DNA of 64,000 bases from the IMG/VR virus record IMGVR_UViG_3300008954_000001. One strand, 5' to 3'. The stretch comes from a virus (taxonomy: Duplodnaviria; Caudoviricetes). Positions 9,777 through 60,762 of the stretch are shown here, one piece after another; the stretch's first letter is position 1, and every line of letters starts with the position of its first letter. A model generated the notes under the pieces. That model searched no databases. It was not told where the DNA came from and saw only the letters and a program-made list of their open reading frames with translations. Made by a program: the position numbers and the translations under genes.

Positions 9777-10297
9777 TGCTTCTTCCCTAAGGCATGGCCG
9801 ACCATTGTGGTCCCGTATTCGTCCAAGATGGCTTTCTTAGCCCTCTGGATAGCCCTCTGGATGAAGGTGTGTTTAGCGATCCCTGGATGACACCAGATAT
9901 TGTCTGAACAAGGCCCCTTCTTTAGTTTGGCGGGCATGGTTCGGAAGATTAACTCTCCCGATTTCTTATCGATGAGCGGAATAACCTTCCCCGGCGCACC
10001 TACTCGCCAGCCTTTCTTTCCCTCCATGTATGCTTCAGGCTTCATATGAGGCCAAGACGATTGAATCTCAATCGTACTTTTACCTCTCAAAGACCACGAA
10101 AAAGAGTTGAAGAACTTTTCAGAGCGGGGGATCGACTTGGAGCGACCGGCTACCTTCATAGCTTCTTGCTTGATGAACTCGATGCACTTATCCCCCAACT
10201 TCGCCAAAATTGTATTGGAGGGGCTGGTTCGGAACCCACCCTTCTTAGCTAAAGGGCCGCCGTAAATACCTTTGACTCGAAACGGTTGCTCTGCCAC
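9773..10297 (-). CDS. Putative HK97 gp10-like neck/tail component
   Basis: Basic 174-aa protein ending in PGIAKHTFIQRAIQRAK, reminiscent of gp10-like proteins. Follows the head-closure gene. Confidence 0.5.
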   Translation of the reverse strand: MAEQPFRVKGIYGGPLAKKGGFRTSPSNTILAKLGDKCIEFIKQEAMKVAGRSKSIPRSEKFFNSFSWSLRGKSTIEIQSSWPHMKPEAYMEGKKGWRVGAPGKVIPLIDKKSGELIFRTMPAKLKKGPCSDNIWCHPGIAKHTFIQRAIQRAKKAILDEYGTTMVGHALGKKQ

Positions 10298-10306
10298 TTA
10301 TCCCCC

Positions 10307-11671: not shown

Positions 11672-11683
11672 AGCAACCTCCTA

Positions 11684-12136
11684 CTACCCTTCTGAGGGTG
11701 CTTCGGCTGCCTCTCCCATGGCTCCAGGGGTGCTTTGAACAACTACAGTGCCATCTGGATTCACAGACCAGCCTGACCCTTCAGCGATCCCCAAGGATTC
11801 CCCGATTTCTCGGAGCTTGTTTTGCGAGGCGGATTCCAACTGACCATAAGAAGCGATGATCCGAGCCTTGCGAATTTCAATATTCCCAAGCTCCTTCACA
11901 CAATCCTCGCCCGCCATGCGGAAACGGTTCAAAACCGCCATATCCGCTTCGGGTACGGTCAGGGTTTCAGTTGTCGCTGACACGGCTTCTTCCGTTGCTT
12001 TAGCGACATCTTCAGGTGCAGATACCGAAGCGGTTTCAGTACCATCAGCTTCGGCGGTTACGGTTTCCTCAACTGCTTCGGTGGCTGTCTCAACTGCACC
12101 ATCATCAGTATTCTTGGACTTTTTCTTTCCAAACAT
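11684..12136 (-). CDS. Hypothetical protein (acidic N-terminus, coiled coil)
   Basis: 150-aa ORF with SD GGAG, first gene of the neck/actin unit. Confidence 0.75.
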   Translation of the reverse strand: MFGKKKSKNTDDGAVETATEAVEETVTAEADGTETASVSAPEDVAKATEEAVSATTETLTVPEADMAVLNRFRMAGEDCVKELGNIEIRKARIIASYGQLESASQNKLREIGESLGIAEGSGWSVNPDGTVVVQSTPGAMGEAAEAPSEG

Positions 12137-12201
12137 TATTGAACTCTCCTATCGGGTAAAAGCCAAGCACCAGCTTCGGTGCGCCTTACTTTACCCCCGT
12201 C

Positions 12202-25711: not shown

Positions 25712-25891
25712 AATTAATGACTCCTTTTTGAGTAAGAATTGTGAGGCATAGGTTTCGCACCGTGCGAACCTACGCATGTTTGTTTTCGTGTGTTGTCTGT
25801 TCCTTAAGATCGAGGTTTAGAGATCGGAAGCCGTAGCTTCGTGTCTCTGCAACTCACCATCTGTCTATTTCAGACCCAGAACACGACTTAG

Positions 25892-39000: not shown

Positions 39001-40050
39001 GGAGGTCGTGTCCGAAGACACCCACTTCACATTCCAAACATAAACTGAACTCTCTGGTTGAAAGCTGTTCCCCGCCCGATCTGTCATCGTATAAGGGTGC
39101 CTCAAGACAAGCTCTAACCTGTCATAAAAGGCCGCCGCATCCGCAGGTATGCCGTAATACTCGAAGGGGTCTACGGTATAAAGACCGATTTTAAGGAACC
39201 CGTCTTCAGGGCCGAAGTTCCCGGAATCCCAATCAAGAGCCTCTACCGCTTTCAACTTAACATCAAGAGGGGCCTGTTGGCCCCCACTCGCTTTCAGCGT
39301 AAACCCCCACTGAGAATTGGCACTCCAAGAATTATTCGGCAAATGTTCCGAAAACCGCATCTCAAACACCCAATTAAAGGTGTTTGTCATAAGGGTGGCT
39401 AACTGTGGGTCGGGGTAGAGGTATTCAATCCATGGTGTAATATGCTCCGCATACCAATCCACGGATTCTGTTTGAAGCATGTTCCCAGCATCGTCTTGAA
39501 TGGGGCTTCGAGAATACGAAGGGTGGTTGAGCGTCAAAGTCAGATATTGATCGGGGAAGCTAAAAGTCCCGTCAGGCTCAAACACACTCCCCGCAAAAAT
39601 AAGGTGTGCGGACCTCCTGTCAGGGGACACCACAACACGTTCAATATAGAGACTTCCAATCCCTACACTACCTTGAAAAAGGTAGTTGCTGACCAGTTCC
39701 GCATTTTGCACGGCTTCCGTAAAGATGACTCGAATCCCATTGTTGAGAAGATAGGCTCCGTTGAAAAAGCCTTGATCTGACGGAACGGTGGCCAAAATCC
39801 TTGGGGCCTGAAGATCCACATCTTTTCGAGGGGGGACAATATGGCCATAAATAGTAGCTTGGGGAAAACCATTCGCCGTAGCGGAATCTGTATCAACGCC
39901 CGGCTTGAAAGGAACCTTCAACAAATTTTCGTGGGTGGCACTCATCGTGTTTGGGTTGAATACCGCTTTCCCGATACTCGCACCCCCAGAAAGGCGGTTG
40001 CCTGTGCTCTTCCCATAGTAAAATTTATCGTCAGCCACGGTCGCCTCCAT
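33100..40050 (-). CDS. Giant Ig-like repeat protein (about 2310 aa), probable virion adhesin/fibre
   Basis: SbsA/Big_5-like repeats (P.....P......V.F.EAV) at the N-terminus, four Big_2-like repeats (LQLK..ATYSD...W.SS....TV...G.VT) near the C-terminus, acidic GDDS tail. Probable start GTG at 40038 after GGAGG. Confidence 0.8.
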   Translation of the reverse strand: MEATVADDKFYYGKSTGNRLSGGASIGKAVFNPNTMSATHENLLKVPFKPGVDTDSATANGFPQATIYGHIVPPRKDVDLQAPRILATVPSDQGFFNGAYLLNNGIRVIFTEAVQNAELVSNYLFQGSVGIGSLYIERVVVSPDRRSAHLIFAGSVFEPDGTFSFPDQYLTLTLNHPSYSRSPIQDDAGNMLQTESVDWYAEHITPWIEYLYPDPQLATLMTNTFNWVFEMRFSEHLPNNSWSANSQWGFTLKASGGQQAPLDVKLKAVEALDWDSGNFGPEDGFLKIGLYTVDPFEYYGIPADAAAFYDRLELVLRHPYTMTDRAGNSFQPESSVYVWNVKWVSSDTTSPVATFINPSPVVTYIGNVARTSDNALISNVRSVLVGFDEAVENPTDPSMWSVNGESGLTISEVHLVDSHEHVQAITVKFEANATTAPNAKFKLSHFLTDANGNTATELPLVLMEAQYPQLAQTGAQGVYHINHETNGDWDGEAPVQFTTAVKHMEPNALLAFYEGAGVTVYTVGTNGVETVATDVVASLKFVQPMKDSHPRFAELTDEQKKDVSEQIWAHKLSFDLTTVSGTPIPYGDGLYRIRLTLKPLYTYDGKGYPQVPRGNPSETNPDALAPHMQCAGWGNPLSSGLYSDIFSDSWDGVVYIDVQNHPEPVPPLEVLSVTPSEGSTISNDGGVTTFTFNQAITSINSAYVKVKDANGDWVLYDPQEYVNVIISGSSASLTYYGPNGGLYPAGEAVKFCVDEITLAADGSLAYGPWEAEYVFVDGEIAITDLVKNDNKVTLSVSLGADVSNWRVKIISWEDEDQYFYMDWDWSTANTEVEIPWDFDLTGAYTIAVETQVVGGWSGFEATATVDFDYSIEVFYNVIYEQVEANQTPEPTKIDLAFGAGEDVSFLVRTGSNPTATYNFPIVEIPFGSVGNETDFAGLENYARQYSFTVDQPFDDALGQMVPGTYIFTTQGSFDSSGTVTCGVPTGVSFDIEEIGDTWFQHGRHGIKLAPAGVSYMSTCLLTLETPDGDKSFSGAYSHSVTDSGKPAFIFGPFHWDVDTNGGEDLDTSYAYGNNPPNAQTGTPTHVLAGVHKATFAWSSGTTEIMDVEIKDHGLHVVFNEIGDDGRVEVTVTEDDPNGKMDTIWLYNDILLPVGGSAAMDVGSTYTTSELENGTYNYVVEGYSDTEESGATSPFADYAMYRWEGTFEVQNKKPTVYSWDAEYRTDSGDTYYVPSYNPNEELPVKQGSTSSAGTIYIKFSPKADQETYTNPPWVHYKLEPLNGSLVIDEGYVDLTAEGEVEKSWSHENFPLLTKGTYRLWLTMREADKTTLIGGLNYKDYTIDVMAPRYSNTGAVSGAITQNYGSEENGDQYTTTSMWRFLASGDHYAPQHSFYDPAFNALTLHYDEAMDTDTLKVKSLPDPRTSTGWDDWKKHVDWGIFSSDDNYQYRKIRETAAADIYGNRQNSWTSQKVFMEKIDKPILVDVRNLTPEDVNIDAAPQDYVYKGRFGGIIHMEGDVSTWTVDGDQQWSDVVNRSTQHFSYEATGNSYALPGVDHWKQYATDTFYEASCSTKTVVLELHYSEALEHSPEVILHGEHFAPILPWPMLGGDFSGPKTPTYFFGVPKPLVPKVQMNAGKGGSYFDPYPVSTPWSTELKDISQTYVIHRASLDGVTVASDEMCFIKLCEKGLETATADFNYYAGSMGTYDPPSEVGGISRTDRGDTRLWTSEGTVGKVVRVALNFESMLFGKVSVMPVPGHPDQYGIPICLEIRQKEGPYDTTLGPDRITFWLLWNGISDEGVDLTDSWDVDWWAHNDVESTDRSVYWPNNDTALGRTFEFANADLNLTQHSNRKSFVWDRQAIVGYTPHVYVASIDVTTADGSDTASLEEGSTLQLKVTATYSDGSTGDITSSTGLQWNSSSETNALVDDNGLVTGVLASTFATEISAKVMDASDSIAITVTDPVVTLSSIHIVDADGHFDFAATVGDALQLKALGTYSDSSQAALNGTDLSWSVSDSGAFTIDNYDDISGIVTLKASVEGSETVYATYGTKTTDVALTAKAAQPIMTSIRIEDSATNTVPTQIDQAGQLDLTVVGIWNNGMEQNLETAAYTTSWSISPAGAGTITADGVYTANTDETVVDITATVDGSFNDTVSLAVITAPAATITTLTIKDLQGKDSGFAVPAGQDLILKAEAVWSDGFVQTLTTTHGILWNSSDPTTATISSDGVVTGKRAGTATIKVSVTVGLNQSEASAPVLVLQEGGAPDGGDTGGDDSGDTGGDDSGDTGGDDSGDTGGDDSGLNDDFTNPDDPDTDHDALG
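33161..33260. repeat. Perfect 24-bp tandem repeat (about 4.2 copies) encoding GDTGGDDS
   Basis: CCGCTATCGTCACCGCCAGTGTCG at 33161, 33185, 33209 and 33233. Confidence 0.95.
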
Positions 40051-42689: not shown

Positions 42690-43559
42690 TTAGCGAGTAA
42701 TGCTGAGTCGTGTCAACCCACGGGGGTTGAAGGCACCAAGTCCAAGGTTCTCGAACACGGAGAATCCGATAGTACGAGCCTTGGGATCATCGGCACTGAG
42801 CACGGTAAGCTCGGTACGAACCGGGATACGACCGAACATCTCTGGCTCACAGCAGACATAAGTCACGCCGTTAGGAACCAAACGAGACACGATCACCTGA
42901 GCACCCCAAAGGGTTCCCATGAGACCAGTCTTGAGGAGAGCCGCTTGGCTCTCGATGTCCAGAATGTCCCGACCAAACTTACGAAGGTCAGCATAGTCAC
43001 GAGCGTTCATGAACACACGAGCAACACGAAGGTCGTGACGCTCAATCAGGGCGAAAGCGTCAGCCAGCACGGAGCCACTAATCGGGGCAACGACGGACTG
43101 ATTCTGCTCAACCTGAATGGAGTCAAAACCATTGGAAGCAATGGTGTCAAGAACTGCGAATACTCGCTCATCTTCAGCGGCCTGGATCTGGGCACGGGCC
43201 AAGTCCTGAGCACGTTCAATGAGGTCGAATCGACGTTCCTTGATCTGGGTTAGTGGAATTTCGGGATTACTGGCGATCTCGAAAAGAGGGAAGATCACAC
43301 GACGAGGCTTGGTGACAGCGACGATATTCTCGCCTTCCTCACCAACCACATACGCAGTCACATCGGGGTCTTTATCGTAGATCGGCAAAGCACCATCCGG
43401 CAACTGCTCGACCAAAAAGGTCTTACGGCCAACGGCGGTGTAATCTCGACGGGTACGGAGCGGCTGTGTCATCGAAGCTGCGAGCTTGGCACGACCCTGA
43501 GGGGTCTTGATGTACTCACTGATGATACGCTGCTTTACGGCATTTGATACGTTCGACAT
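42690..43559 (-). CDS. Major capsid protein (HK97 fold, 289 aa)
   Basis: Start MSNVSN after AAGGAGG. HK97-like pattern (RRVIFPLFEIASNPEI...AQIQAAEDERVFAVL...VFMNARDYADL...GTLWGAQVIVS...FSVFENLGL). Last gene of the head module, followed by a strong terminator. Confidence 0.88.
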   Translation of the reverse strand: MSNVSNAVKQRIISEYIKTPQGRAKLAASMTQPLRTRRDYTAVGRKTFLVEQLPDGALPIYDKDPDVTAYVVGEEGENIVAVTKPRRVIFPLFEIASNPEIPLTQIKERRFDLIERAQDLARAQIQAAEDERVFAVLDTIASNGFDSIQVEQNQSVVAPISGSVLADAFALIERHDLRVARVFMNARDYADLRKFGRDILDIESQAALLKTGLMGTLWGAQVIVSRLVPNGVTYVCCEPEMFGRIPVRTELTVLSADDPKARTIGFSVFENLGLGAFNPRGLTRLSITR

Positions 43560-43569
43560 GATAACCTCC

Positions 43570-44187
43570 TTATACCCGCTGGTCGTAGACGATTTCGTCT
43601 TGGGTTGCGTCAGCAGGCATCTTGAGAACGCCGATAACGATATCCGTTGCGCCACCTGCACCAGCATAGCCATTGGCCTGAAGGTGCGAGTTGTTAGCAT
43701 CTGCAACATTCGTGAGATAGCCGTTCTGGGAAGCAACCAACTCTTCGCCACATGCGTAGGTCAAGTCGTCAGTCGTATCCAAGTTCTGCGTCTCAAAAAG
43801 TGCGTTTGCGTAACAGCCCTGTGCAGAAACATACGGTCCCTTACCACTGGCGGTGCCAGGGGTGTTCTCGAAACTGTTTCCGTTTGCGGTGTTAATGAAG
43901 CAACCGAGGGGAAGAGCCGTAGCGGTGGCCGAGGGGCCTCCGATTTGGTTCGATCCGCCGCCGCTGCCTGCGTCACGGGTGAAAGCTACGCTACCGCTCA
44001 GAACACCTAAAGTAGAGGTGTCGGTCTGATCGGAGATCGTAGCCGCTGTGGTAACGATTGGGGGGTTCGCCTGAGTGAAAGCATCGTCACAAAGTACACC
44101 AACGGTATTACGAACACCGATATGCAAAATGCGAAGAGCTGAACTACTCTCAGTGAAACCGCCACTCGCCTGTCCAAGTAGAGCCAT
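43570..44187 (-). CDS. Putative head decoration/cement protein
   Basis: 205 aa, Gly/Ala/Thr-rich, immediately upstream of the MCP in its own two-gene unit. Confidence 0.65.
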   Translation of the reverse strand: MALLGQASGGFTESSSALRILHIGVRNTVGVLCDDAFTQANPPIVTTAATISDQTDTSTLGVLSGSVAFTRDAGSGGGSNQIGGPSATATALPLGCFINTANGNSFENTPGTASGKGPYVSAQGCYANALFETQNLDTTDDLTYACGEELVASQNGYLTNVADANNSHLQANGYAGAGGATDIVIGVLKMPADATQDEIVYDQRV

Positions 44188-45630: not shown

Positions 45631-47019
45631 TTAATCCGTGTGCGAGATGAGCTTGCCCAGACGGACTAACGCCTTGGCTTCTGTCAAAGAGGGCTTACGT
45701 CCAAGTGCTCTCGTACATGCACTTAGATACCCAGTTAAATTGTCGTACTTCTTTGTTGAACCGAGTTTTAAGGCGGCTCGATAGATTTCCACAGGAAACA
45801 TGATTTTGTGATGGTTGTTATAGGTGGCTACCCGGTTGATAAGATCAGCAGGTTTCGTGGAAGTGTCTAAAATCGCTTGTAGTCCAATAAGATACGTCTG
45901 TTTATCTGCGCCACGGGCTTCCCGCTGAAGCGTATCGTTCGGGGCCATTGAAGAGTCGCCGTCCCCTTCGGGGGCACCCTCCAAGTCCTTTTCAATACGC
46001 TGACGAGCTTTGGAAAGAATCTTTCCAACAATCTTATCTTCCAGTTCTTGGAGTGGAGAAGCATCTTCCTCCCCACCCACCTCATCTGGAACATCAGGAT
46101 CATCCCAACCAGCGAAAACGAGTGAGGAGGCTGCGGCTTTCGCCAAGCCCCCATCGGCCCATTCTTTCGGGAGGGAAGATAATACTTCTTGAGCTTGCTT
46201 CTTCGCAGAATCGCTCATCTCCAACGGGGAGACAATATTTCGCATAACCGCACCCGCAAATGCGGGAGTTGCTACCCAACTGGCTTCGATGAAGGTCACT
46301 CCCCCTGTGGGATCAAGGGTTTGATGTCCACAGAGTTCAGCAATCCGATGTTGGCGGCCTTGATCATCAAAAAAGGTATTCCCCTTTTCGTATTTGATAT
46401 GACCACACATTTCGGTTTCATCGGCGGCAACATTTCCGCATTTTGTACATACGGTAAAGTCCACCGAACAGCCCATCGACATAGCTGCCATTCTGCCATT
46501 CTCAATCGCCTTTACTAAATCAGTGTGTTTGCGATTGGTGGCAATCAGAATGTCGATGTAAACGCTGTCCCCAATATCACGAGCAACCGCATCAATGATC
46601 CTGCCTTTCGACAGGTTTTCAATCTGAACATGCTCAACGAAGTTATGCGCCCCAATGAAAGTCTTGTAGGACTTCATTAGAACCTCACGGCTCCAAGCAT
46701 CCAGATTATTATTGATGAACTTATCGCAATCAGGAACGATCCTATAATCCGTATAGTTACGGACCACTTGTTGACCATCTTCTTGAGAAGACCCGACCTT
46801 TACTCCGGGGACATCTTCAACATCCACCGAGCAAACAATCGTCGCATGGGTCAAAAGGTGATCTTTGGGATCAAAGCTCGACCCAAGAAGCTCCGCCGCT
46901 CGTGCGGAAACCTTCGTAGCAAGTTCTGTGTCCTGTGCCGCTGTGCGAATCTTCTGCCAACTCTTCGGAGAGAGTTGTGGAGATACTACTTTCGCCTTCG
47001 CATACTTTAGAAAAGCCAT
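45631..47019 (-). CDS. Prohead (capsid maturation) protease with Cys/His insert
   Basis: HNFVEH...GRIIDA...MSMGC (His/Ser dyad-type motifs), CTKCG...CGH insert, FIEASWVATPAFAGA. Canonical position in the head module. Confidence 0.78.
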   Translation of the reverse strand: MAFLKYAKAKVVSPQLSPKSWQKIRTAAQDTELATKVSARAAELLGSSFDPKDHLLTHATIVCSVDVEDVPGVKVGSSQEDGQQVVRNYTDYRIVPDCDKFINNNLDAWSREVLMKSYKTFIGAHNFVEHVQIENLSKGRIIDAVARDIGDSVYIDILIATNRKHTDLVKAIENGRMAAMSMGCSVDFTVCTKCGNVAADETEMCGHIKYEKGNTFFDDQGRQHRIAELCGHQTLDPTGGVTFIEASWVATPAFAGAVMRNIVSPLEMSDSAKKQAQEVLSSLPKEWADGGLAKAAASSLVFAGWDDPDVPDEVGGEEDASPLQELEDKIVGKILSKARQRIEKDLEGAPEGDGDSSMAPNDTLQREARGADKQTYLIGLQAILDTSTKPADLINRVATYNNHHKIMFPVEIYRAALKLGSTKKYDNLTGYLSACTRALGRKPSLTEAKALVRLGKLISHTD

Positions 47020-48114: not shown

Positions 48115-48223
48115 GATGTATCCTCCTAAAAATTAGTTGTTCCCTAAAGGTCTACGCAGGAGAATACCCCTGCGAAAGATGGCTCACCTTTCACATGGGT
48201 AGCCCTCAATAAAAGGGCGGTGA

Positions 48224-48239
48224 TATAGGAAAGCCATTG
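48224..48239 (-). promoter_or_regulatory. Conserved intergenic motif copy (CAATG-gctt-TCCTAT-A)
   Basis: In the spacer upstream of the scaffold/protease unit, followed by a leader hairpin at 48155-48174. Confidence 0.45.
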
Positions 48240-48249
48240 AACCGAGACT

Positions 48250-51200
48250 TCATTTATTTTCTTTCCGCCTTCCCCCGAATGGAGGGGGCGGGGGCGGAAG
48301 CGTCTTTTGTGACAATGCTTCGGCGTTGCCTGTGTCGGCGTGTTCCCGAACTTTATCCGCCAAAAGAAATAGGTCATCTGACAATTTCTCTTGGTCTTGC
48401 TTTTTTTCAGCGAAAATCGAGAGGACGGTGGCGGAAATACTTTTCCGAAGTGTCCCCCCAATGTCCTCCGGTGGCTCTTCTTCGTTGAGCAAATTGTCGT
48501 GAGCCTCTTTAATCAGACCTTTACACGCCTCTAAGTATGCGAAATCGCCCCCATCTTCCTCTTGTAAGCCTATTTCAGCGAGCAGGGGGGAGTACACTGT
48601 GATGCTATCCAACGCCATTGCCATCGCCCAATCTCGTAACGTCCCTCTTTCTTCTGGGTCATGTCCCAAAGGAACTCGGCCCGCCATGATCCCGGACGGG
48701 GTGGCCGAATCGAAGAAATCTTGAAACTGCTCGTCTGGAACTTCTTCCATGACTGCAAAAAAGACCTCACGACTCTCTTGGGTATGCCACTCTTGTAATG
48801 GGGTACATAAGGCGGCGTGGCCGTCCTCTGTTTCTGCCATCTTCCGAACAAACCGTTTGGTTTCTTTACTCGGAGACACCCCACCGGGGGATTCATGTCC
48901 TTTAAGGATCGCCGCTAAATGGTGACCCTCAATTCTGGCTTCAATCTCAGCGACTCGCTTTGACCTCTCAGGTAAAGTATCGGCCTCTGCTTCTAACGCC
49001 ATTACAAGCACTTGGCGGTCGTCCCCAGAATACTTCCGAGAATCTTCTATGGTTGAGGAAACCTGAGCGAAGCGAGCATCTTTTGTGAGTTCTGACTTAT
49101 CTTTAGGGTCTGAAAGGTCTTTAGCTGGGTTAAAGTAGGTTTTCTTGGCATATTCCGCACGGGCAAGGGCCTCCCCTATAAAAGCTGCGGGGGAACCCTC
49201 ATCCTCAAAAAACCTCTCTGCCGCATACTCCCCACTCAAAGCTGCCCGTGCATCGATGAGCTTCATAGGGTTTTGCTTCAACCCTTCGGTTTCAGCTTCA
49301 AAAGCGGCCTCGAAAGCTCCAAAGTCAAACGCTTCCGACAAGATTGCGTTTTCCTCCAACGCCTCCACCAAGTCTGGTAGCAAAGCCTCTAATCGAGAAG
49401 CCAACTCTTCACGAGACGCTAATTCTTCCTCAACGTGTTGTTTGTTTTTGACCCTTTGGGTTTCAATGACCTGTTCAGGAAATGTTTGTAAGAGGTCTAA
49501 ACCCTCTTCGGTAGACGGGTCTAAAGACACCTCATCTTTTGTTCCGTCCACATGATCAACCGTGATTGTGTATTTCCCATCAACGGGACCGGACACAGAC
49601 ACATCTGGCCTTGGAAAGTCTGTTTCGGGGTCATCAAACGCCTCTAAATCCAAAAGCCCTTTAAGCCCTTCTGGGATCGACTCTTCCGAATCGACCTTAG
49701 CTACCTCTGGCCCGTCCCCGATTTCTTCTTCTCCACCCCCGCCTTCATCGTCATCTTCTCCGGGGTCTTCGGCCAACCATGCTTCGGCTTCTTCTCGTGT
49801 TGAAAAGTGTTCGGTCTTATCCCCTTTAGTGGCTTTGAAGCCTTCGTCATCCCCCAACTCTTCAATCCCGTCAGCAGTCAGCCACCGTTGAGCAATTCGC
49901 TTATAGTTCATGCTCAAATCGTCATCGCCTTCAGCCCCAAGATCCTCAACGTCCGAATCTTCCGCATCCACACGCTCTTTTCGTAAGTCTTTGCGTGGGG
50001 GCTTCTTCTTCGGAGAGGGTCGCACAAGGCGGCCCGCTTCTTCGTCTTCTTTCTCAGCGAGAGTTTTTGTCGCTACCCTATGAAAGCGAACGGCGTTGAC
50101 CGCAGCGGATTCGTTGGTGAAGCGTTTAGGGGTGTTTGAATCTCCGGGGGAAGCCCACCACTCCTTACCGATTTGCCAAACAAATCCTTGGGGGATCATT
50201 CCTCCAATGTCATGAGAGCCTTTCGTAACGTCAGCAACGCCCCAATCGTGGACAGCCTTCACCGTTGTCGCTCTCGACAAGAGGTTCATCAACCATCGTT
50301 TCAAACCACCCATTTTCAGTGTTTCTTCATGAGGACACGGATACGAGCGATCTACAACACGCTCTATATTAGCCTGTCGATAAACACCTAAAAGAGCAGT
50401 GGGGTCGAGTTCCTTCCGAATTGAGCGAAGGGCTTGCGCTATCCATTGGGGGTCGGACTCCTCCAACCATGCCCGCTGAAGCAATCGAATACGATCCGCC
50501 ATCTGCGATAAATCTGTTTGGTTTGTTTCCCAAACCTCGTTGATTTTATCGAGCGTAACGGCCTCTTCTAAAAAGCCTTCGATAGTCAAAAAATGCTTCG
50601 CTATACAATCTGGACAGCGTTTGCGGGGATGAAAGAGGTGATCCTCCAATAAAACGCATTGTTTGACCACTTCTCGAAGGTTGAACCACGGCGACATAAT
50701 CGGAAGCAAACTGGCTAACCGCAACTTGTCTACTGAACGGCGAATCTCACTTTTCAACTGATTTGGGGATTTCAAAAGCTCCGGGTTCTCTAAAAGAACC
50801 AAGCGAGAAAGCTCCTGTACTCTTGGGAAAAAAGACTTCAAATCCTTTTTCTCAATGCCCTTCTCTTTCGCCAACATTGGCATGAAGCTCTTATCTTTGA
50901 TGGCATTACCGGGATTCTTCAAAGCCGAAACAAGATGGTCTTGCTCCTCACGGGTCATCTCAAACGCAATATCAGCAACCCGCTTACGGCCCGCCGCATC
51001 AAGAAATCCGAGATCGTGGCGAACGGGCAGGCCGAGGTCGGTCAACGTAAAGAAAAACTGAACTGGCAATTTCGCAGCCCTCCCTTTCATGGTGGCGGCA
51101 AACATCTTGTCCTTTTGAAGCATCACCTTCAGCGGCTCAATCAACCCCAAACGGTCAAGTTGGGCCAATGTTTGTTTCCACGTATTCTCTTCCAATAGCT

Positions 51201-52026
51201 TGAATAACTCCTGGGCCACACGAGAGGGGCTTACTTTCAGGAGGGCCATCCGCTTACGGCGGATTGAAGCTACGGTATCTGGTGGTATCTTCAGGCCATA
51301 TTTGACCAAGAACTTGATTGCTCGAAGCATTCGAGTCGGGTCATCTTGAAAAGTCGTGTCAGGGTCAAGGGGGCAACGTGCTTCACCTGCCTTCAAATCC
51401 TCCAAGCCGCAACCCGTCATATCAATGATCTCGGCTTTATCTGGACCCTTCGCTAAATCCGATAGCCGCCACATCAACGTGTTGAAGGTGAAGTCCCTCC
51501 GCATGATATCTTCTTTGATCCCAGACCATTCAACAGAGGGTTTGTACCCCCCGCCGGAATCGTCCGAATAAGTCTCTGACCGAGCGTTAACGATCTCAAT
51601 GGCAGCATCGCCCTCGGCACTAAACTCACTGAGGTCCACACCGTCCACAACCCACGAACTTTTCACTACAATCTTGGCAACTCCGTAGTTGTCCGTGATC
51701 AACTCCGTAGAGGCTGGAATCATGCGCTCTAACCGCTTGGCGAGCCAAGCCGAGTCTTTACCCAAGTGTTTTGAGTCTATGACCATATCCACATCTTTAA
51801 TGGGTTGGTCGATTACGAAGTTTCGGACAGCCCCGCCCACCACATACACATGCTTTCCCACATCAGGACCAAGACGGCCCACAGCCTCTGCCATCCACCG
51901 CATTAGAGCGGTCGAGTGTTGGCTGGACACAGATTTCTTGTGGAAGGCTGAGACAACCCTTTGAACTGTGTCTTTATGTTGTGTGGTAAGGGTCACAAAA
52001 GCATCCTTCATCGGTCGGTAATACAC
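48250..52026 (-). CDS. Multidomain protein: N-terminal class II nucleotidyltransferase (CCA-adding enzyme) plus Cys/His domain plus long acidic region
   Basis: VYVVGGAVRN...KDVDMV, ARSETY...P.V, EDIMRRDFTFN, DDPTRMLRAIKF motifs in the first ~430 aa. About 820 aa of extra sequence follows. Confidence 0.88.
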   Translation of the reverse strand: MYYRPMKDAFVTLTTQHKDTVQRVVSAFHKKSVSSQHSTALMRWMAEAVGRLGPDVGKHVYVVGGAVRNFVIDQPIKDVDMVIDSKHLGKDSAWLAKRLERMIPASTELITDNYGVAKIVVKSSWVVDGVDLSEFSAEGDAAIEIVNARSETYSDDSGGGYKPSVEWSGIKEDIMRRDFTFNTLMWRLSDLAKGPDKAEIIDMTGCGLEDLKAGEARCPLDPDTTFQDDPTRMLRAIKFLVKYGLKIPPDTVASIRRKRMALLKVSPSRVAQELFKLLEENTWKQTLAQLDRLGLIEPLKVMLQKDKMFAATMKGRAAKLPVQFFFTLTDLGLPVRHDLGFLDAAGRKRVADIAFEMTREEQDHLVSALKNPGNAIKDKSFMPMLAKEKGIEKKDLKSFFPRVQELSRLVLLENPELLKSPNQLKSEIRRSVDKLRLASLLPIMSPWFNLREVVKQCVLLEDHLFHPRKRCPDCIAKHFLTIEGFLEEAVTLDKINEVWETNQTDLSQMADRIRLLQRAWLEESDPQWIAQALRSIRKELDPTALLGVYRQANIERVVDRSYPCPHEETLKMGGLKRWLMNLLSRATTVKAVHDWGVADVTKGSHDIGGMIPQGFVWQIGKEWWASPGDSNTPKRFTNESAAVNAVRFHRVATKTLAEKEDEEAGRLVRPSPKKKPPRKDLRKERVDAEDSDVEDLGAEGDDDLSMNYKRIAQRWLTADGIEELGDDEGFKATKGDKTEHFSTREEAEAWLAEDPGEDDDEGGGGEEEIGDGPEVAKVDSEESIPEGLKGLLDLEAFDDPETDFPRPDVSVSGPVDGKYTITVDHVDGTKDEVSLDPSTEEGLDLLQTFPEQVIETQRVKNKQHVEEELASREELASRLEALLPDLVEALEENAILSEAFDFGAFEAAFEAETEGLKQNPMKLIDARAALSGEYAAERFFEDEGSPAAFIGEALARAEYAKKTYFNPAKDLSDPKDKSELTKDARFAQVSSTIEDSRKYSGDDRQVLVMALEAEADTLPERSKRVAEIEARIEGHHLAAILKGHESPGGVSPSKETKRFVRKMAETEDGHAALCTPLQEWHTQESREVFFAVMEEVPDEQFQDFFDSATPSGIMAGRVPLGHDPEERGTLRDWAMAMALDSITVYSPLLAEIGLQEEDGGDFAYLEACKGLIKEAHDNLLNEEEPPEDIGGTLRKSISATVLSIFAEKKQDQEKLSDDLFLLADKVREHADTGNAEALSQKTLPPPPPPFGGRRKENK

Positions 52027-54063: not shown

Positions 54064-54387
54064 CTACCCACGACCTTTTCGAGGTTCATCCGACTTAAAC
54101 CCTGACCGTGTAATATGCCCTGTCTTGTAAGCCGTTTTCACAACTTTCTTCAAGAGAGTAATATGGGGAACACTACCTGAAAAGAGCCTTCTCCAAGAAC
54201 CACCAGCCCGCTTAAACACCCGTATGATCTCATCATACTCGGCCCCAATATGCACGGCATCAGGACCATACTTATCGATGAAATCTTTGATAAGACGGTA
54301 ATCAGCCCGTACAGGATCAGTGGGGTCTTTGTTGGGCATCTTATCTCCTCTTCTTCCCAGGCACTTGCCGAGACTCGTGTGAGCCAC
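54064..54387 (-). CDS. Hypothetical protein
   Basis: Operon-packed ORF. Probable start MPNKD at about 54339 after GGAG. Confidence 0.65.
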   Translation of the reverse strand: MAHTSLGKCLGRRGDKMPNKDPTDPVRADYRLIKDFIDKYGPDAVHIGAEYDEIIRVFKRAGGSWRRLFSGSVPHITLLKKVVKTAYKTGHITRSGFKSDEPRKGRG

Positions 54388-56161
54388 CTCGCATAGCCTT
54401 GAGTCGGGCCTTCCTTCTGTGCCTTGTTATAGAAGCCTCATTGTTGTTAACGCCCCCTCGATGGCCCACCATGTACTTCTGGTTCCCCAAATGCTGTGAG
54501 GCAAGCCAGATCATTCGGCAAAGAGCATCCGCCATATCATCGTGTTTCCCTTCTGTATTGGGGGCCTCCACCGTAGTCACAAACTTTGAGTGGTAGTGGG
54601 CTTGAAGCTCTAAAAGCTCCTTTATGTATGCACAGTGCTGTTCGCCTTCGGGGATCGGGTGGTCGTATAGCTCCAACCTTTTATCGAAAAGCATATCTTT
54701 GAAGTTCTTGAACATTTCACTGGTTTTAGGTTTCGTCATCGCCTCGGAACGGAGCTTCCTCAAACCTCGCTTGATAAGGGCCTGCTCCAAAGGAATCCCC
54801 GCCCATTGATCAAAAAGACCCTCCGAGAAGTAAAACTTCTTACTCAACGCAAGAATCCAATCGGCCACGTCATCGAACTCAAGACGATCTTTATCGGCGT
54901 ACTGCCCCTCACCCGCTTTAATGCTGTCCACCAAATCCACCACAATCTTATTGTTTGTGTCTATGTGTCCAATAGCAATAGCGGTGCCGTCACCTACAAG
55001 GCCAAGGTCGATCCCGACAAAATGGGGGGCCTTTGATTTGGCCCCTGTGCGAGCTTTACGGTCTGGGATCACGCAATCCATAAGATCAGACTCCCGCTCA
55101 ATCCAACCTTTTGTTCGGTCAGTGAAAACACCGCCGTACTCCGTAAAGAATACGTTCGGGTCTTTGATGTAGTGCTTTTCAAACTCTGTGGCGGGAACCG
55201 TTGGGTTCACTTCCCATGTAGGGGCCTGAACACACAGCATGTTTTCCGCAGCCTTCCCACCCCTCATTCCAATTTGGAACAGTTTGTAGAACTGGCCTTG
55301 GCGACCTAAAGGGGAGGAAATCAAAATGATACGGCCCTCTACAGGGCCGATTGGAATCCGAGAATCGGTCGGGTCTTTGGGCGAGAACGCTGAAGTAGAG
55401 GGTGTTACGGCGTTATAGACCGCTTCGGCCCCGGACTGCCCCTTGTCTGTGAAGTGGGCAACCTCATCAAGAATCACCACCAAGTTACCTGCACCACGCA
55501 AACCTTTGGCTACGCAGGAGCGAAAAGTTACCTTAAGGGTAGCTTTTGCATTGGGGTCATCCGCATAAGTCCCATACCTCTTGATATCGTCTGGAGTCTG
55601 AAACCTCGCATAAGACATCGTATTGTTTGCCGTATAGGGATGGAAAAACGCCGTGTTGCGAAAATGGCCTGACACCTCTTGATATAAAAGGCCCGCCTGA
55701 TCCTTATCTGTAGCAACCGAAATGATCTGAATGTTATTAGATGCGGGCAATCCGTAATACTGTTGAGGGTTCTCTTTCTTAATCAGCCTGTATGTCTCAT
55801 AAGCAGCAATACAGGATGAGAGAAGGGTCTTTCCAGAACGGCGACCAATACTCAGGATCATCTCTCGTCGCTCATGCCCCGGCACCACCTCCCGAATGTT
55901 GCATCGGCCCTCATCATACAACCACTCAAGATATGTTTTCTCGGTGTAGTCCTTGAAGTCTTCTCTGCGCCAATCGGAAATCTTGAATGTGGTTGTATCG
56001 TCCAATTCAAGCCCATAGTGGATCTTGAGAATGATCCGCTGAATGGGAAACAGCTTCATTTTCAAGCCCCAAGAGGACTCTACAAACTCAATGATGTTTG
56101 CGTCTTTCTGTAAAGAAGCGTCTACTTTTCCAGCAGATTTAGCGATATCTGAAAGGGCCAC
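54341..56161 (-). CDS. terL: Terminase large subunit
   Basis: Walker A GRRSGKT, Walker B VVILDEVAH, coupling motif ILISSP, RNase H-like VGIDLG...D, C-terminal HDDMADAL. Confidence 0.95.
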   Translation of the reverse strand: MALSDIAKSAGKVDASLQKDANIIEFVESSWGLKMKLFPIQRIILKIHYGLELDDTTTFKISDWRREDFKDYTEKTYLEWLYDEGRCNIREVVPGHERREMILSIGRRSGKTLLSSCIAAYETYRLIKKENPQQYYGLPASNNIQIISVATDKDQAGLLYQEVSGHFRNTAFFHPYTANNTMSYARFQTPDDIKRYGTYADDPNAKATLKVTFRSCVAKGLRGAGNLVVILDEVAHFTDKGQSGAEAVYNAVTPSTSAFSPKDPTDSRIPIGPVEGRIILISSPLGRQGQFYKLFQIGMRGGKAAENMLCVQAPTWEVNPTVPATEFEKHYIKDPNVFFTEYGGVFTDRTKGWIERESDLMDCVIPDRKARTGAKSKAPHFVGIDLGLVGDGTAIAIGHIDTNNKIVVDLVDSIKAGEGQYADKDRLEFDDVADWILALSKKFYFSEGLFDQWAGIPLEQALIKRGLRKLRSEAMTKPKTSEMFKNFKDMLFDKRLELYDHPIPEGEQHCAYIKELLELQAHYHSKFVTTVEAPNTEGKHDDMADALCRMIWLASQHLGNQKYMVGHRGGVNNNEASITRHRRKARLKAMRGGSHESRQVPGKKRR

Positions 56162-56857: not shown

Positions 56858-57325
56858 TTAGAAGTCTGGCCCCGTAATAGCCGGGGAGCCTTCAGACATT
56901 ACCCCTGTGGTGGGATCAAGCGTGAGGTTTTCTGTGTAATCGACCAACTCCAAGGTAATATCTTGGGGGCCGTTTGGACCACTAATGGTCACATCAGCAT
57001 CTACCGCCACTGCGCTGAACCCTGCGATACCGTCATTAAGGGTAGCTCCAATCGCATCAGCGATATTTGAAGCGGTATCGTTCACATTACCGGCAATCTC
57101 CCAATGAGTGCCTTCAACCAGTTCAATGTCCCCTAATGTAATTCGGGAACCTTTTGATGAAATGGCGTTCGTTGCGATTACCGTAAGGGTAGCTTCACAG
57201 GCGGTGGGGTTTCCGGTCAAATTTGCATTGATAACCTTCCCCCCACCGAGATCAATGTGTTGATAGGTCACTGTCCCCAATGCGGGGGAGATAATTTCAA
57301 AGCGACCTTTTGTTTTGCGTGTCAT
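56858..57325 (-). CDS. Hypothetical virion structural protein
   Basis: Beta-rich, TASNIADAI...AVDADVTISG pattern like sheath-associated domains. Confidence 0.6.
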   Translation of the reverse strand: MTRKTKGRFEIISPALGTVTYQHIDLGGGKVINANLTGNPTACEATLTVIATNAISSKGSRITLGDIELVEGTHWEIAGNVNDTASNIADAIGATLNDGIAGFSAVAVDADVTISGPNGPQDITLELVDYTENLTLDPTTGVMSEGSPAITGPDF

Positions 57326-57921
57326 TCGATGTCTCCTATGGGTTCACCCACCAGACTAAAATCGTAGGGCGGTTTTTCAATTCCTGGGCGGCCTTCGGAG
57401 TCTGTCATTCGTTGTTGTAACAGGTAAATAAAGACCTCATGTTGATTTGCTAATGTCATTAGATAATCATCCATACCAAGAGACAGGCTATCCATGCCTT
57501 TTAGTAGGTCATAGGCAGTGCGAATCGTGACTTGTAGGTCTTCTTCCCCCGCCAAAGCTCTCAAAAGCGGGCAATCCACTTCTTTGAACCTTGAGATATG
57601 TGCTTGCGCTTTATCCATTTGGGAGAAAGGGCTGACCGAATCGGGGCCAAATAGCCCAACACACTTTTCGGCAAGCTGGTCAATCTCTCCCGTCATCTGG
57701 TTATACATGCGCTCAAACAACTGGTGATCCCCATAGCTGGATTGGCCTTTTGCTGACCAATGCGCTGACCAGTGCATCCACCGCAACCCTCGAAGCGTTG
57801 CGAGAGTTACCGTAAGAATAGTCTGTGCTGCATGAACGTGCGTAGGGACACCTACCAAATAGGCTTTCTTTAGGTGTCGTGACGCAACTCTGGCAGCAAG
57901 TCTACTCATCATCTTCCCCAA
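57322..57921 (-). CDS. Dps/ferritin-like protein
   Basis: H-x-x-x-HW...G...DHQLFERMY...EIDQLAE ferroxidase-centre pattern, C-terminal HEVFIYLL helix. Confidence 0.85.
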   Translation of the reverse strand: MGKMMSRLAARVASRHLKKAYLVGVPTHVHAAQTILTVTLATLRGLRWMHWSAHWSAKGQSSYGDHQLFERMYNQMTGEIDQLAEKCVGLFGPDSVSPFSQMDKAQAHISRFKEVDCPLLRALAGEEDLQVTIRTAYDLLKGMDSLSLGMDDYLMTLANQHEVFIYLLQQRMTDSEGRPGIEKPPYDFSLVGEPIGDIE

Positions 57922-60139
57922 GGCTCATCCCACCAAAGAACACCCCCGCCAACTCTTCGTGTTCGGGAGTGTCGTTGAAATCGAACCCTGTCATGGAATC
58001 GTTCGACAGTTGAAACTCGGATGGGTCGTAGCCCGAAAACAAAGAAGCCGTGATTTCTGCATCACTGGCTCTGGCAAGCCGAAGAGCCTCTGCTTGATAC
58101 TTCTTCGGGTTCTCAACCGGAGCTTCCTCTACCAGAATCTTATTGTACTTCTGACAAACAGAAAGCCCGTCAGGGAGTTTGTTTGCGAACTTACAAGTCC
58201 CACATCGAGGCATACACAAAGCGAACTTCAAGCCGTTCGTTCTGTGCCTGTCTGCGCCCCTGTCACAGCCTTTGGTTCCTTCGGGAGTGGCGTAGGCTTC
58301 GGTGTCTACATAAACTTGCCCTGAAAGGCCCTCGTGGGCCTCACGAATCTGAATAAGCTCATGACCAGCCGCCTCTACCAAACGCTTTGAAAAGCGAGCG
58401 GAAAGAAGGTCGTCGAAATCCTTGCCCAACACGCCCTCAGACATCTGAATCCGAGACCACTTAACGAGCTTCCGAACATCTACGCTACTGGTTTTGGTGG
58501 TTCGACTCTCTGGGATCGCCTCTGTGTAAATGGCTTCCGAATACTCTCGAACAGGTGTAGCGGTAATCTCGCCACGCTTCGAGTTGTTCAAAGCCACCAC
58601 CGCAGATGCAGCGTGTACTAACTCGCCCGCATTACGCTTGGACTTGAGTAGCCTATCCGCTTGTCGTTGTGTGATTTGAGCCTTATCCGCCAAAGCCTGA
58701 ACATGCTCTTTGGCCTGATCCAACTTGCTTTTCTTCAAGTCAGCCGTGACCTTCTTGGCCCACTCATGCTTGAGCTTACGAGCCTGACCTACATCCTTCG
58801 TATGGATGCCACTCGGCTTGTAGTCTTTACCCGCTGTCGGAAAGGCCGCTGCGGTAGCAAAGCGAAGCATCTCTTTAGGACTCGCCCCACTATTGATGAT
58901 CTCTTTAGCGGCCTTTTTCGTCAGTGAACCATTCCGCACCAACTCAAGGACATGCTTCTGAGCACGGGTCTTCAACACCGTGTCCAGCGTATCGCCCGTA
59001 ATCTTAGCTTGCGCTTGCTTCTTAGAAGCCGAGAACTTCTCTTTTGCCTCGGCCATACTGACCGACTCTACGGGCGTTTTGTGTGTCGTAAAGGCTTCTC
59101 TGCGCCTCGGCTTCCTCGTAGGCTTCGTAGTAAAGGCGGTTTTAAGGGCTGTGCGAGGGTCCGAACCAGCGACCTTGATGCCCAAGGCTTTGAGTCGTGG
59201 GGCATAAACCCTCAACGCTTCCTTCCAAGGAATATCAAGAACAACTCGCTTACCGAGGTAGTTCTCAAAAGCGGCCATCTTCGTGTTTGGCTCTGCCAAA
59301 ATATAGGCGGCGGAGGCACACTTCGTCTTAATGAGAGAGTCCCATTTTCCGTTGTGCATCCCAGGAAAGGCTGACGCTCGAATAAACACGTTTCCAGCTA
59401 AACCGTGCTCCTCTGAAATCAGGCCAGCCAAAAGCCGTGCCGTGGTGTCGGGAGTTTCAAGCTCTTCGGCGGCTTCTTTCAGCAACGCCTCCATCGAATA
59501 ACCACAAGCGGATCGCCGCATAGCTTTTTGCATGGCGGCTTTTACATTGTCGTAGCCTGGAAGCCCTGATGTTTGGCCGGGATCACGAACTTCAGCTTGA
59601 TACCGCTCAACCTCTTTGTTCCGATTAGGAATCAGTTCCAACCCGTTTGTTCGAGTCTCTACCCACGCTTGTTGGAGAGCAGCCTGAGCCTTATCCACAG
59701 GATTGACAGGAAGCCTGTCTTCATCTTGTTCGAGCGAGGGATCAAGCCAATCGAGATTGGCGAGGGAGGATTTCTTCCCAAGCTGCGAGTTCTCTTCCTC
59801 TGAAAGAACAGCACCAGAAGCCAGCAGTCCCCAAGGATCGCCCATATGTTTATGGAGGGGGCCGCTGCGCTGCTTCACTTGGACGGCTGGCCCTGTGTAG
59901 TTGCTGGGGGCGGAAGGGGGTCCAGCTTCAGCATCTTTTTCATCGGGGCTTTCGGGAAGGATGCCTTCAGGAAGCTCGGCCATGCCGTAGGCTTCAGGTA
60001 ACACGGCCCCGTCTTCAACGCCGTCTCCGTAATCCATATCAAAATCAAAGCCGTCTAAGCCGTAATTGAAACCGGAAGTTGGGACATGGCCGCCATCGGG
60101 GAGATGAGACTCGCTCTGCTTCGCTTTTTTCTTACTCAT
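57902..60139 (-). CDS. Large hypothetical head-module protein with internal duplications and Cys-rich C-terminal domain
   Basis: 745 aa. HGLAGNVFI/HEGLSGQVYV duplication; C...CxxxCxxC...C. Confidence 0.8.
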   Translation of the reverse strand: MSKKKAKQSESHLPDGGHVPTSGFNYGLDGFDFDMDYGDGVEDGAVLPEAYGMAELPEGILPESPDEKDAEAGPPSAPSNYTGPAVQVKQRSGPLHKHMGDPWGLLASGAVLSEEENSQLGKKSSLANLDWLDPSLEQDEDRLPVNPVDKAQAALQQAWVETRTNGLELIPNRNKEVERYQAEVRDPGQTSGLPGYDNVKAAMQKAMRRSACGYSMEALLKEAAEELETPDTTARLLAGLISEEHGLAGNVFIRASAFPGMHNGKWDSLIKTKCASAAYILAEPNTKMAAFENYLGKRVVLDIPWKEALRVYAPRLKALGIKVAGSDPRTALKTAFTTKPTRKPRRREAFTTHKTPVESVSMAEAKEKFSASKKQAQAKITGDTLDTVLKTRAQKHVLELVRNGSLTKKAAKEIINSGASPKEMLRFATAAAFPTAGKDYKPSGIHTKDVGQARKLKHEWAKKVTADLKKSKLDQAKEHVQALADKAQITQRQADRLLKSKRNAGELVHAASAVVALNNSKRGEITATPVREYSEAIYTEAIPESRTTKTSSVDVRKLVKWSRIQMSEGVLGKDFDDLLSARFSKRLVEAAGHELIQIREAHEGLSGQVYVDTEAYATPEGTKGCDRGADRHRTNGLKFALCMPRCGTCKFANKLPDGLSVCQKYNKILVEEAPVENPKKYQAEALRLARASDAEITASLFSGYDPSEFQLSNDSMTGFDFNDTPEHEELAGVFFGGMSLGEDDE

Positions 60140-60762
60140 TTGGTTCTCCCATTAGTTCGGCCAAGGACTCGATTGATGGCGGCGGTTTTCCTGTGGGCTT
60201 GCCTACCTGAAAATTGATCTTCAACAACCTCATCGGCGGCGGCCTCTGGATTCTCTTTGATCTCCTCCACATCTTCCATGATGTCTTTGACCTCATCCCT
60301 CTGTCGATCCACGGTAGGGTTATCCATAGACCAATGGGGAGCATTGATTTCGTCGTACAAGGTGTCCGTAAGGGAAGAAAGGGCTTCGGAGCAGTTCATA
60401 AACTGCCGTCGCATCGCACGGATTTCTTGAATATAGCCCTTACCGCCAAGATTGCCGTCTGGTGAGATCAAGGCTGATTTGAGTTTCGCAAACTCATGAT
60501 AAGAGCTTTGTGTGTGGCCCAAGGCCATAAGACATGAACGAAGGCATTTCGCCAAAGGCTTTAGTCGAGCGGGTGAAAACTCAAACTCAACATTCAAATC
60601 TCGCTCGGACGGCCCTGTATCGGCGTAGGCCCAGTTTTTCTCATCTGAACCACGGTCCTTGATGAAACGAACTTCACCCGCTGTCTTGGACATAGCGGCT
60701 GTTTTTGAGCGCAGATACCGTGTCACTACACGACTCGCCATCCTATTGCGTTTATCGGCCAT
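60136..60762 (-). CDS. Hypothetical head-module protein
   Basis: 208 aa, SD GGAGG. N-terminal RVVTRYL..KTA motif. Confidence 0.8.
   Translation of the reverse strand: MADKRNRMASRVVTRYLRSKTAAMSKTAGEVRFIKDRGSDEKNWAYADTGPSERDLNVEFEFSPARLKPLAKCLRSCLMALGHTQSSYHEFAKLKSALISPDGNLGGKGYIQEIRAMRRQFMNCSEALSSLTDTLYDEINAPHWSMDNPTVDRQRDEVKDIMEDVEEIKENPEAAADEVVEDQFSGRQAHRKTAAINRVLGRTNGRTK

Follow-up and report, generated by a model that had tools for sequence, protein, structure and literature searches.

Gene and setting

The window analysed here is the whole 64,000-nucleotide stretch from IMG/VR record IMGVR_UViG_3300008954_000001, which covers the structural region of a huge, marine, phage-G-like tailed phage. 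Directly after the portal gene, on the minus strand, lies an open reading frame (ORF) of 1258 uninterrupted codons at positions 48250-52026, whose product, P0001, joins an N-terminal nucleotidyltransferase (NTase) to a Cys/His bundle, a lineage-specific insert, a conserved linker that closes with a short peptide tag, and an acidic C-terminal domain (Table 1). To judge from sequence matches and the predicted structure, its first 440 residues form a complete class II tRNA nucleotidyltransferase, probably active and of the CCA- or A-adding type. We tentatively regard the whole as a polyvalent head-internal protein that delivers this enzyme for the repair of tRNA 3' ends, a view to which we give slightly less than an even chance.

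The gene order on the minus strand is large terminase subunit (TerL), portal, P0001, P0003, P0007, P0004, P0005, a 205-aa protein and the major capsid protein (MCP). A sequence-only reading of the window had placed the gene between portal and scaffold/protease, and this was borne out, as the portal lies upstream and the prohead protease homologue P0004, followed by P0005, a 403-aa acidic scaffold-like protein, lies downstream. The start of P0001 is ambiguous between GTG 52026 and ATG 52011; the latter is more likely, because AGGTG lies upstream of it and it aligns with the starts of relatives, while at least one gene caller begins at M45 and thereby loses conserved residues.

Two artefacts that could create such an ORF were rejected. 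An alternative genetic code producing false giant ORFs does not apply, because TAA (12), TGA (11) and TAG (10) all serve as stops in the window, which indicates the standard code; the related loci L001, L002, L007, L009 and L010 also translate under table 11. An assembly or sequencing fusion that is split in close relatives does not apply either, since the full order of NTase, Cys/His bundle, linker and C-terminal domain is seen again in seven homologues from independent samples (P0008, P0009, P0012-P0016). The long homologues number 20 (781-2084 aa) and come from contigs of up to 261 kb from TARA and other marine samples. Overall, the fusion occupies this slot in no fewer than eight close relatives and in dozens of distant ones.

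Table 1. Features of P0001 and of the surrounding head genes in the window
Feature	Positions	Strand	Remarks
Whole ORF P0001	48250..52026	-	1258 aa counted from GTG 52026; stop TGA 48250-48252
Degenerate N-terminal tag QRVVSAFH, aa 22-29	51940..51963	-	low predicted local distance difference test (pLDDT) score; outside the folded NTase
Class II nucleotidyltransferase unit, aa 30-440 (head, neck, body, tail)	50707..51939	-	Pfam, PHROG, model, motifs
Cys/His four-helix bundle, aa 444-549 (CVLLEDHLFHPRKRCPDC...KH; CPDC aa 471)	50380..50697	-	conserved Cys and His
Lineage-specific insert, aa 568-651	50074..50325	-	only in P0001 and P0012
Conserved linker, aa 652-717 (ATKTLAEKEDE..SPKKKPPRKDLRKERVD..DLSMNYKRIAQRWL)	49876..50073	-	closes with strict tag RIAQRWL
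Strict tag RIAQRWL, aa 710-716	49879-49899	-	linker end
Acidic C-terminal domain, aa 720-1258, pI 4.4	48253..49869	-	pLDDT 84 in the AlphaFold2 (AF2) model
Spacer P0001-P0003, 45 codons, in frame	48115..48249	-	three stops: TGA, TGA, TAA
P0003, acidic, 193 aa	47533..48114	-	downstream neighbour of P0001
P0007, Zn-ribbon protein, 167 aa	47021..47524	-
P0004, prohead protease homologue	45631..47019	-	phrog_18299 1.1e-12; phage G gp19 2.5e-19
MCP	42690-43559	-	289-290 aa, ATG 43559, from relatives and alignment
Portal P0002	52070..53761	-	phrog_16240; directly upstream of P0001
TerL	54341-56161	-
199-aa protein	57322..57921	-	N-terminal tag ARVASRHL; weak Pfam DUF5856 match only
208-aa head-module protein	60136..60762	-	N-terminal tag MASRVVTRYL, kept on L001 and L002 homologues

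The nucleotidyltransferase unit

The head domain of the NTase (aa 60-214) matches Pfam PF01743 (PolyA_pol) at 54 bits against a cutoff of 23, and aa 244-299 match PF12627 (PolyA_pol_RNAbd) at 38.7 bits against 22; PHROG 2244, 'tRNA nucleotidyltransferase', is matched at 1.6e-30. The intact class II head described by the sequence-only reading is upheld by these matches and by the motifs GGAVR (aa 64), DVD (aa 78-80), E144, RRDFT (aa 176) and DDPTR (aa 228-232). GG, DxD, E, RR[DE] and [DE]DxxR are retained in 38-40 of 40 homologous NTase units; the sequences thus do not suggest an inactive enzyme, since the catalytic and templating residues are conserved.

An AF2 model of the unit, built from 56 sequences, reaches pLDDT 90 and finds the full-length enzyme of T. 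maritima with Foldseek at 4e-12. In the VIA-align superposition on 3h38 from that species, 341 residues are aligned (Z 21.7, rmsd 6.9), model residues 7-416 corresponding to 12-424. For further enzymes of the CCA- and A-adding kinds Z lies at 19-21; for E. coli poly(A) polymerase it is 17-18, with an alignment that reaches only to about residue 355-399. By structural alignment, P0001 thus has the head-neck-body-tail layout of about 400 aa found in tRNA nucleotidyltransferases.

The same comparisons bear on whether the NTase could instead be an offensive effector, i.e., a poly(A)- or tail-adding or nucleotidylating enzyme, packaged or not, that targets host RNAs for decay or blocks host tRNAs. 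The best NCBIfam score is that of a PcnB model (TIGR01942, 106 bits; NF008634, 77 bits), the top PDB sequence match is E. coli poly(A) polymerase, and polyvalent proteins carry Pol-beta NTases as predicted effectors (PMC5512222). However, both PcnB scores lie below their curated cutoffs (306 and 702 bits), the better one by a factor of three, and it is the tRNA nucleotidyltransferases that align over the full length including the tail (Z 19-22), with the polymerase scoring lower over a shorter range. The fusion partners in relatives are moreover end-healing enzymes and not nucleases, and we consider an effector improbable.

Some relatives carry more than one unit. P0010/P0011 (1326 aa) and P0017 (923 aa) consist of three or two tandem complete NTase units without the linker, which could reflect divided C-, C- and A-adding specificities or simple duplication. 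In P0027 the NTase is interrupted by an intein/homing-endonuclease domain (aa 332-778), and an intein or homing-endonuclease domain also interrupts the prohead protease gene of L014 (16157-18898).

The linker and the other modules

The sequence-only reading had described a low-complexity charged linker. On closer comparison aa 652-717 turned out to be the best-conserved element of a whole protein family, with invariant P..KPPRxDL and D.S.NYK within the consensus ATKxxAExEDE..P..KPPRxDLR..D.D..DLSxNYKR[VI]AxRWL; in the AF2 model this segment is predicted to be largely disordered. A phmmer search with aa 655-1258 against 1.8 billion representatives (50% clustering) yielded 217 family members, nearly all of which share the linker alone with the query. 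By sequence comparison it is therefore the linker, and not the C-terminal domain, that is the constant part of the family. The member proteins range from 73 to 3381 aa, and the linker may be N-terminal, central or C-terminal in them.

Among 30 linker proteins searched against Pfam, 22 matched Topoisom_I and seven PolyA_pol, and GNAT, 2H, ChaC and tRNA_lig_CPD were also found. In 178 proteins analysed with local hidden Markov models, topoisomerase IB (Topo IB, the commonest module), NTase (one to three units), 2H, HAD and the Cys/His bundle all lie on the N-terminal side of the linker. What follows the linker varies from protein to protein. Relatives show architectures such as HAD_SAK_1-NTase, 2H-NTase-DUF5661 and 2H-NTase-Topo IB-linker; P0019, P0024 and P0027 carry HAD or 2H domains and P0001 carries neither. 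The frequent fusions of NTase with HAD_SAK_1, 2H or CPD domains are consistent with a function in RNA-end healing.

The Cys/His domain noticed in the sequence-only reading corresponds to a predicted four-helix bundle, which recurs as a mobile, frequently N-terminal module in 25 family proteins; its structural matches are generic helical bundles only (Z 10-12). The C-terminal half is indeed acidic (pI 4.4 over aa 721-1258) and comprises a small beta subdomain (about aa 720-835) and a large helical domain (about aa 840-1240), ending in a conserved LSQKTxP..PxFGG. Neither aa 440-1258 searched against PDB sequences nor sub-segments searched against NCBIfam and Pfam gave a match. Atlas look-ups of the Cys/His module and of P0003 returned weak leads only.

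Recurrent peptides were also seen at the C-termini of the linker family: KKASHGFNL(F/Y)x, WDFTPW, TDPPL, YMGTF..DEPYM..GRPLAP and terminal RVAxRYL tags. The first of these classes is shared by the end of P0003 (..ASFAHGYAL). Such peptide classes may be further short interaction motifs.

The RVAxRWL-type tag

The linker ends in an amphipathic peptide that is found elsewhere in P0001 and its neighbours. The shared tag that the sequence-only reading had spotted is present in P0001 in its strict form at the linker end and in a degenerate form, RVVSAFH, at aa 23-29, where relatives have RVVEAHLKR or RVASRFL. Across 168 family proteins (187,268 residues) the strict pattern R[VI][AV]x[RK][WYHF][LM] occurs 50 times, against 0.23 in shuffled sequences, and it is located at the linker end, directly before the linker, at module junctions and at extreme N- and C-termini. 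Two otherwise unrelated proteins of the head module (57322-57921 and 60136-60762) share the tag type with the junctions of P0001.

Tags are also carried by free-standing NTases of the post-portal island, at the N-terminus in L011 and L013 and as a C-terminal double tag in L014, whereas P0187, in a replication-gene context, is untagged and P0186, which lies outside any head module, bears one at its C-terminus; this comparison covers five contexts and is a small sample. Because separately encoded modules carry the tag too, it is more plausibly an interaction or targeting peptide than a mere cleavage site. It could also combine targeting with cleavage, like the capsid-targeting sequence of T4. 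A predicted complex of linker and tag with the MCP scored 0.00 and is of no weight either way.

The post-portal slot across relatives

L001, L002 and L007 share one gene order: TerL, a pair of small genes, portal, long protein, proteins of about 200 and about 170-200 aa, protease, scaffold, a protein of about 210-230 aa and MCP. The counterpart of P0001 directly follows the portal in L001, L002, L007 and L014, as P0001 does in the window. In L007, a 520-kb contig, the post-portal protein reaches 3381 residues. Enzyme genes (NTase, Topo IB, 2H) lie between portal and prohead protease in L009, L010, L011, L013 and L014, in some islands together with extra genes: L011 has portal, a 144-aa protein, 2H and NTase as separate genes, and L014 has portal, NTase and a Topo protein, with similar arrangements in L009, L010 and L013. 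This position is kept in phages whose MCPs are 85-88% and portals about 62% identical to those of the window. In LR745208.1 (L005) the Cys/His ORF (11718-12146) and the Topo IB-linker ORF (10205-11788, minus strand) overlap in different frames, which could reflect a programmed frameshift, a sequencing error or two genes.

Comparison of gene content shows the slot to be a hypervariable island in which enzymatic modules are exchanged, as in MuF-type polyvalent proteins. Identity to L001 is 99% for MCP, 91% for portal, 90% for TerL, 76% for the protease and 53-84% for the other head-module genes, and it falls to 49% for the fusion protein, the most diverged gene of the module. This low identity fits rapid diversification or recombinational replacement, both common in host-contacting proteins.

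The link to the next head genes

The long proteins are also connected with the genes that follow them. In at least 27 linker proteins from other phages, the last ~110-200 residues are homologous to P0003 (blastp 1e-20 to 1e-3), and two linker proteins, P0074 and P0093, end in a segment homologous to P0007. Two in-frame fused ORFs (L009 and L010) were confirmed under table 11, and inside them the P0003-like part still has an ATG of its own behind a canonical Shine-Dalgarno sequence (L009, AAGGAGGcattcacATG; L010, TAGGAGAcattcaATG). In the window itself the spacer contains three stops, so P0001 and P0003 are separate products. Programmed read-through from P0001 into P0003 was considered and is unlikely, given these stops and spacers in L001, L002 and L007 that are not a multiple of three.

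The spacer contains the element AFLYHRPFIEG (DNA ..TTCCTATATCACCGCCCTTTTATTGAGGGC..), which is found again in relatives with an open spacer, about 35-40 codons before the start of the P0003-like part. It may represent a promoter or RNA element under conservation, or else a real peptide. On comparative evidence, the tags, the splits at module boundaries and the in-frame fusion to the next head gene in other phages tie P0001 to head-assembly components.

Other genes of the window

The MCP of the window is 38% identical to that of Bacillus phage G, and LR745208.1, an uncultured phage of 485 kb, shares 85% (MCP) and 65% (portal) identity with it. By sequence comparison, MCP and portal group the window phage with Bacillus phage G, Tunturiibacter phage Tunturi_5 and LR745208.1. 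A mechanically called MCP ORF (42690-43751, minus strand, 353 aa) begins with GTG and overlaps the upstream gene.

For P0004, an atlas look-up gave a weak lead to S78/S77 prohead proteases (0.89-0.90). Its homologue, phage G gp19, is named a head maturation protease, and the statements on its detection in virions are inconsistent (PMC12484599).

The 64,000 nucleotides contain no tRNA genes. Giant ORFs of 2198, 2316 and 1639 aa were also seen beyond the head genes (19181-25777, 33100-40050 and 963-5882, minus strand), of which only the 2316-aa one has recognisable domains (Big_2 / Ig-like structural protein).

Proposed role

We read the remainder of P0001, i.e., bundle, linker with tag, and acidic domain, as the part that would couple the enzyme to prohead assembly. 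The reading that we find most economical is that the stretch from portal to protease would serve this phage group as an island for enzyme cargo, with P0001 as the member whose load is a tRNA nucleotidyltransferase. The linker and tag, possibly with the C-terminal domain, would bind a prohead component, so that P0001 is incorporated together with a P0003-type acidic protein. The prohead protease may then cleave at disordered boundaries; in the models the module boundaries are disordered, tags lie at junctions, and genes of relatives are split at the same boundaries. The enzyme would enter the cell together with the DNA and rebuild damaged or missing tRNA 3' ends there, which could secure translation ahead of phage gene expression. 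The partners 2H and HAD_SAK_1 in relatives suggest healing of cyclic-phosphate tRNA 3' ends followed by restoration of CCA: the NTase would cooperate with a 2H cyclic phosphodiesterase and a HAD phosphatase that heal 2',3'-cyclic-phosphate ends, and CCA would then be re-added. In this chain we infer packaging, cleavage by the prohead protease, delivery, the CCA substrate and the timing.

Several observations on the specificity of the enzyme, on the remainder of the protein and on the distribution of both weigh against a packaged repair enzyme. P0001 scores 90, 88 and 46 bits against the CCA equivalogs TIGR02692, NF009814 and NF008137, below their cutoffs of 439, 290 and 451, and likewise misses the cutoff of the A-adding NCBIfam equivalog; because no NCBIfam equivalog cutoff is reached, the activity may be CCA-adding, A-adding or that of a poly(A) polymerase. 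The C-terminal domain is found in about 21 family members and most linker proteins do without it; in LR745208.1 it is missing, the corresponding slot being occupied by an ORF with the Cys/His module and by a Topo IB-like one of 508 aa with the linker at its end. Outside the NTase, no Pfam or PHROG match was found at E<=0.01, MuF/Phage_Mu_F included, and the C-terminal half has no homology to phage G gp15, Tunturi_5 gp8 or any of 50,697 phage records. The model of this half (609 residues) gave no fold match at E<=0.001 or TM>0.3 in PDB, BFVD, AFDB clusters or the ESM Atlas, a search that a domain-level match may escape, and its comparison with MuF by fold involves a model of more than 400 residues, in which a weak relationship could escape as well. 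Judged from its model, the C-terminal domain may be a new fold. We know of no protease cleavage motif for the phage group of the window, and packaging of the family is a prediction from comparative genomics.

As to distribution, at least 414 clusters of proteins shorter than 690 aa, many of about 400-450 aa, belong to the same NTase clade (the shorter members are 42-59% identical over 86-100% of the NTase region). At least one free-standing member, the untagged P0187, sits among replication genes beside a free-standing Topo IB, and such a copy indicates that the enzyme is useful without packaging. A role against tRNA-targeting defences, which the 2H and HAD_SAK_1 fusions would support, is weakened by these free-standing copies.

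The features of the C-terminal half also bear on the possibility that P0001 is primarily morphogenetic, with linker and C-terminal domain forming a portal-vertex assembly factor like MuF or gp7 and the enzymes being dispensable fused passengers. In favour of this are its position, which matches that of MuF/SPP1 gp7, its link to the acidic protein of P0003 type, the exchange of payloads, and certain family members that have hardly more than the linker and what lies downstream of it. However, the passengers strictly retain their catalytic residues, the C-terminal domain is itself dispensable in relatives, and Pfam finds no MuF signature, so that we hold this to be very improbable. The sequence-only reading had compared the place with a MuF slot; it was right in so far as there is a post-portal island of enzymatic modules, but no MuF domain was recognised in the C-terminal half.

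A more serious alternative, less likely than packaging but of substantial weight, is that P0001 stays in the cytoplasm of the infected cell as an enzyme of tRNA maturation or repair, made late along with the head proteins and not packaged, which matures phage tRNAs or mends 3' ends, while linker, tag and C-terminal domain assemble a complex of Topo IB, 2H and HAD or regulate the enzyme; the portal-adjacent site would then be a recombination-tolerant variable island. The commonly free-standing state of the clade, also among replication genes beside a free-standing Topo IB, fits this well, and so does the C-terminal domain without a relative among head proteins. NTase, 2H, HAD_SAK_1 and tRNA_lig_CPD form a coherent set for RNA-end healing for which a capsid is unnecessary, and jumbo phages encode free-standing CCA enzymes (PMC7824862; PMC7162821). 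Nevertheless, it leaves unexplained the tag on unrelated head-module proteins, the long ORFs that run into a P0003-type head gene and the fixed place of the island between portal and protease in phages as far apart as those compared above.

Beyond P0001, head-internal delivery could be a special case of general capsid cargo loading in phage-G-like megaphages, where the tag, with or without the KPPRxDL linker, sends unrelated enzymes into the prohead. The cargo would comprise tRNA nucleotidyltransferase, topoisomerase IB, 2H, HAD and GNAT, some of it in individual tagged proteins and some in giant polyproteins whose genes are nested with that of a scaffold-like protein. We think this less likely than not; if true, the virion would inject a ready-made nucleic-acid repair kit.

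Comparison with known systems

Polyvalent proteins and MuF-fused effectors are long multidomain proteins with swappable enzymes, encoded beside portal or head genes, for which packaging and injection are predicted (PMC5512222). The linker family resembles them in its several enzymatic domains, which are shuffled among 178 relatives, and in being encoded among portal and terminase genes, and both have 2H, GNAT and Pol-beta NTase domains. In contrast to the proteins described there, no domain of MuF, portal-fusion or embedded peptidase type was recognised in P0001, the payloads class II tRNA NTase, topoisomerase IB and HAD_SAK_1 are not described in that work, and the family is anchored by another element, a linker of about 66 aa with the RVAxRWL-type tag.

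The internal proteins and Alt of T4 and the ejection proteins of phiKZ- and SPN3US-like phages are unrelated proteins with a common short terminal peptide that enter the prohead and are processed by the prohead protease (PMC5694885, PMC9026906). The tag described here, a putative targeting peptide, differs in sequence and occurs also internally and C-terminally. The cleavage motifs of T4 and phiKZ (L/IxE; S/A/GxE) are not evident in P0001.

In lambda C/Nu3 and herpesvirus UL26/UL26.5, long and short products with a common C-terminus load protein into procapsids. Similarly, the long ORFs of at least 27 relatives end in a P0003-like module, with its own ribosome-binding site and ATG shown in the two verified cases. 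In the window, unlike those systems, the genes are parted by three stops, the long product carries nucleic-acid enzymes and not a protease, and the scaffold role of P0003 is putative.

Free-standing CCA-type enzymes of about 400-450 aa in jumbo and huge phages are already known (PMC7824862; PMC7162821), as are polyvalent head proteins. P0001 belongs to the same clade as the former but adds about 820 residues and has a fixed place among the head genes. Swiss-Army-Knife RNA repair proteins (HAD_SAK_1, PF10307) have a counterpart in relatives that fuse the NTase to HAD_SAK_1, 2H or CPD, whereas P0001 itself lacks HAD and 2H, and the head-module context and the linker are apparently outside that concept.

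In the literature searched we came across no CCA enzyme encoded in a head module or carried in a virion, nor any account of the fixed fusion after the portal, of the linker family and its tag, of Topo IB and NTase as payloads, or of the nesting with P0003-type genes. We know of no earlier case of a repair enzyme for the translation apparatus inside a phage head. If packaged, P0001 would be the first known tRNA 3'-end nucleotidyltransferase in such a place, and in relatives the same would apply to a type IB topoisomerase. The injected repertoire would then widen from anti-restriction and host-takeover factors to RNA repair, and the survival of huge phages under tRNA-targeting defences, at a stage when none of their genes is yet expressed, would have an explanation that can be tested. 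Whatever their function, linker and tag define a large uncharacterised family that explains giant post-portal ORFs in many metagenomic megaphage contigs.

A further parallel is offered by the cargo-loading peptides of encapsulins, where a short peptide is likewise common to unrelated enzymes tied to an HK97-fold shell. The tag differs from them in sequence and in being N-terminal, internal or C-terminal, and its binding to the shell is putative. In practical terms, a targeting peptide that is both short and portable, and suited to HK97-fold capsids of very large size, could be useful for filling phage-derived containers with cargo.

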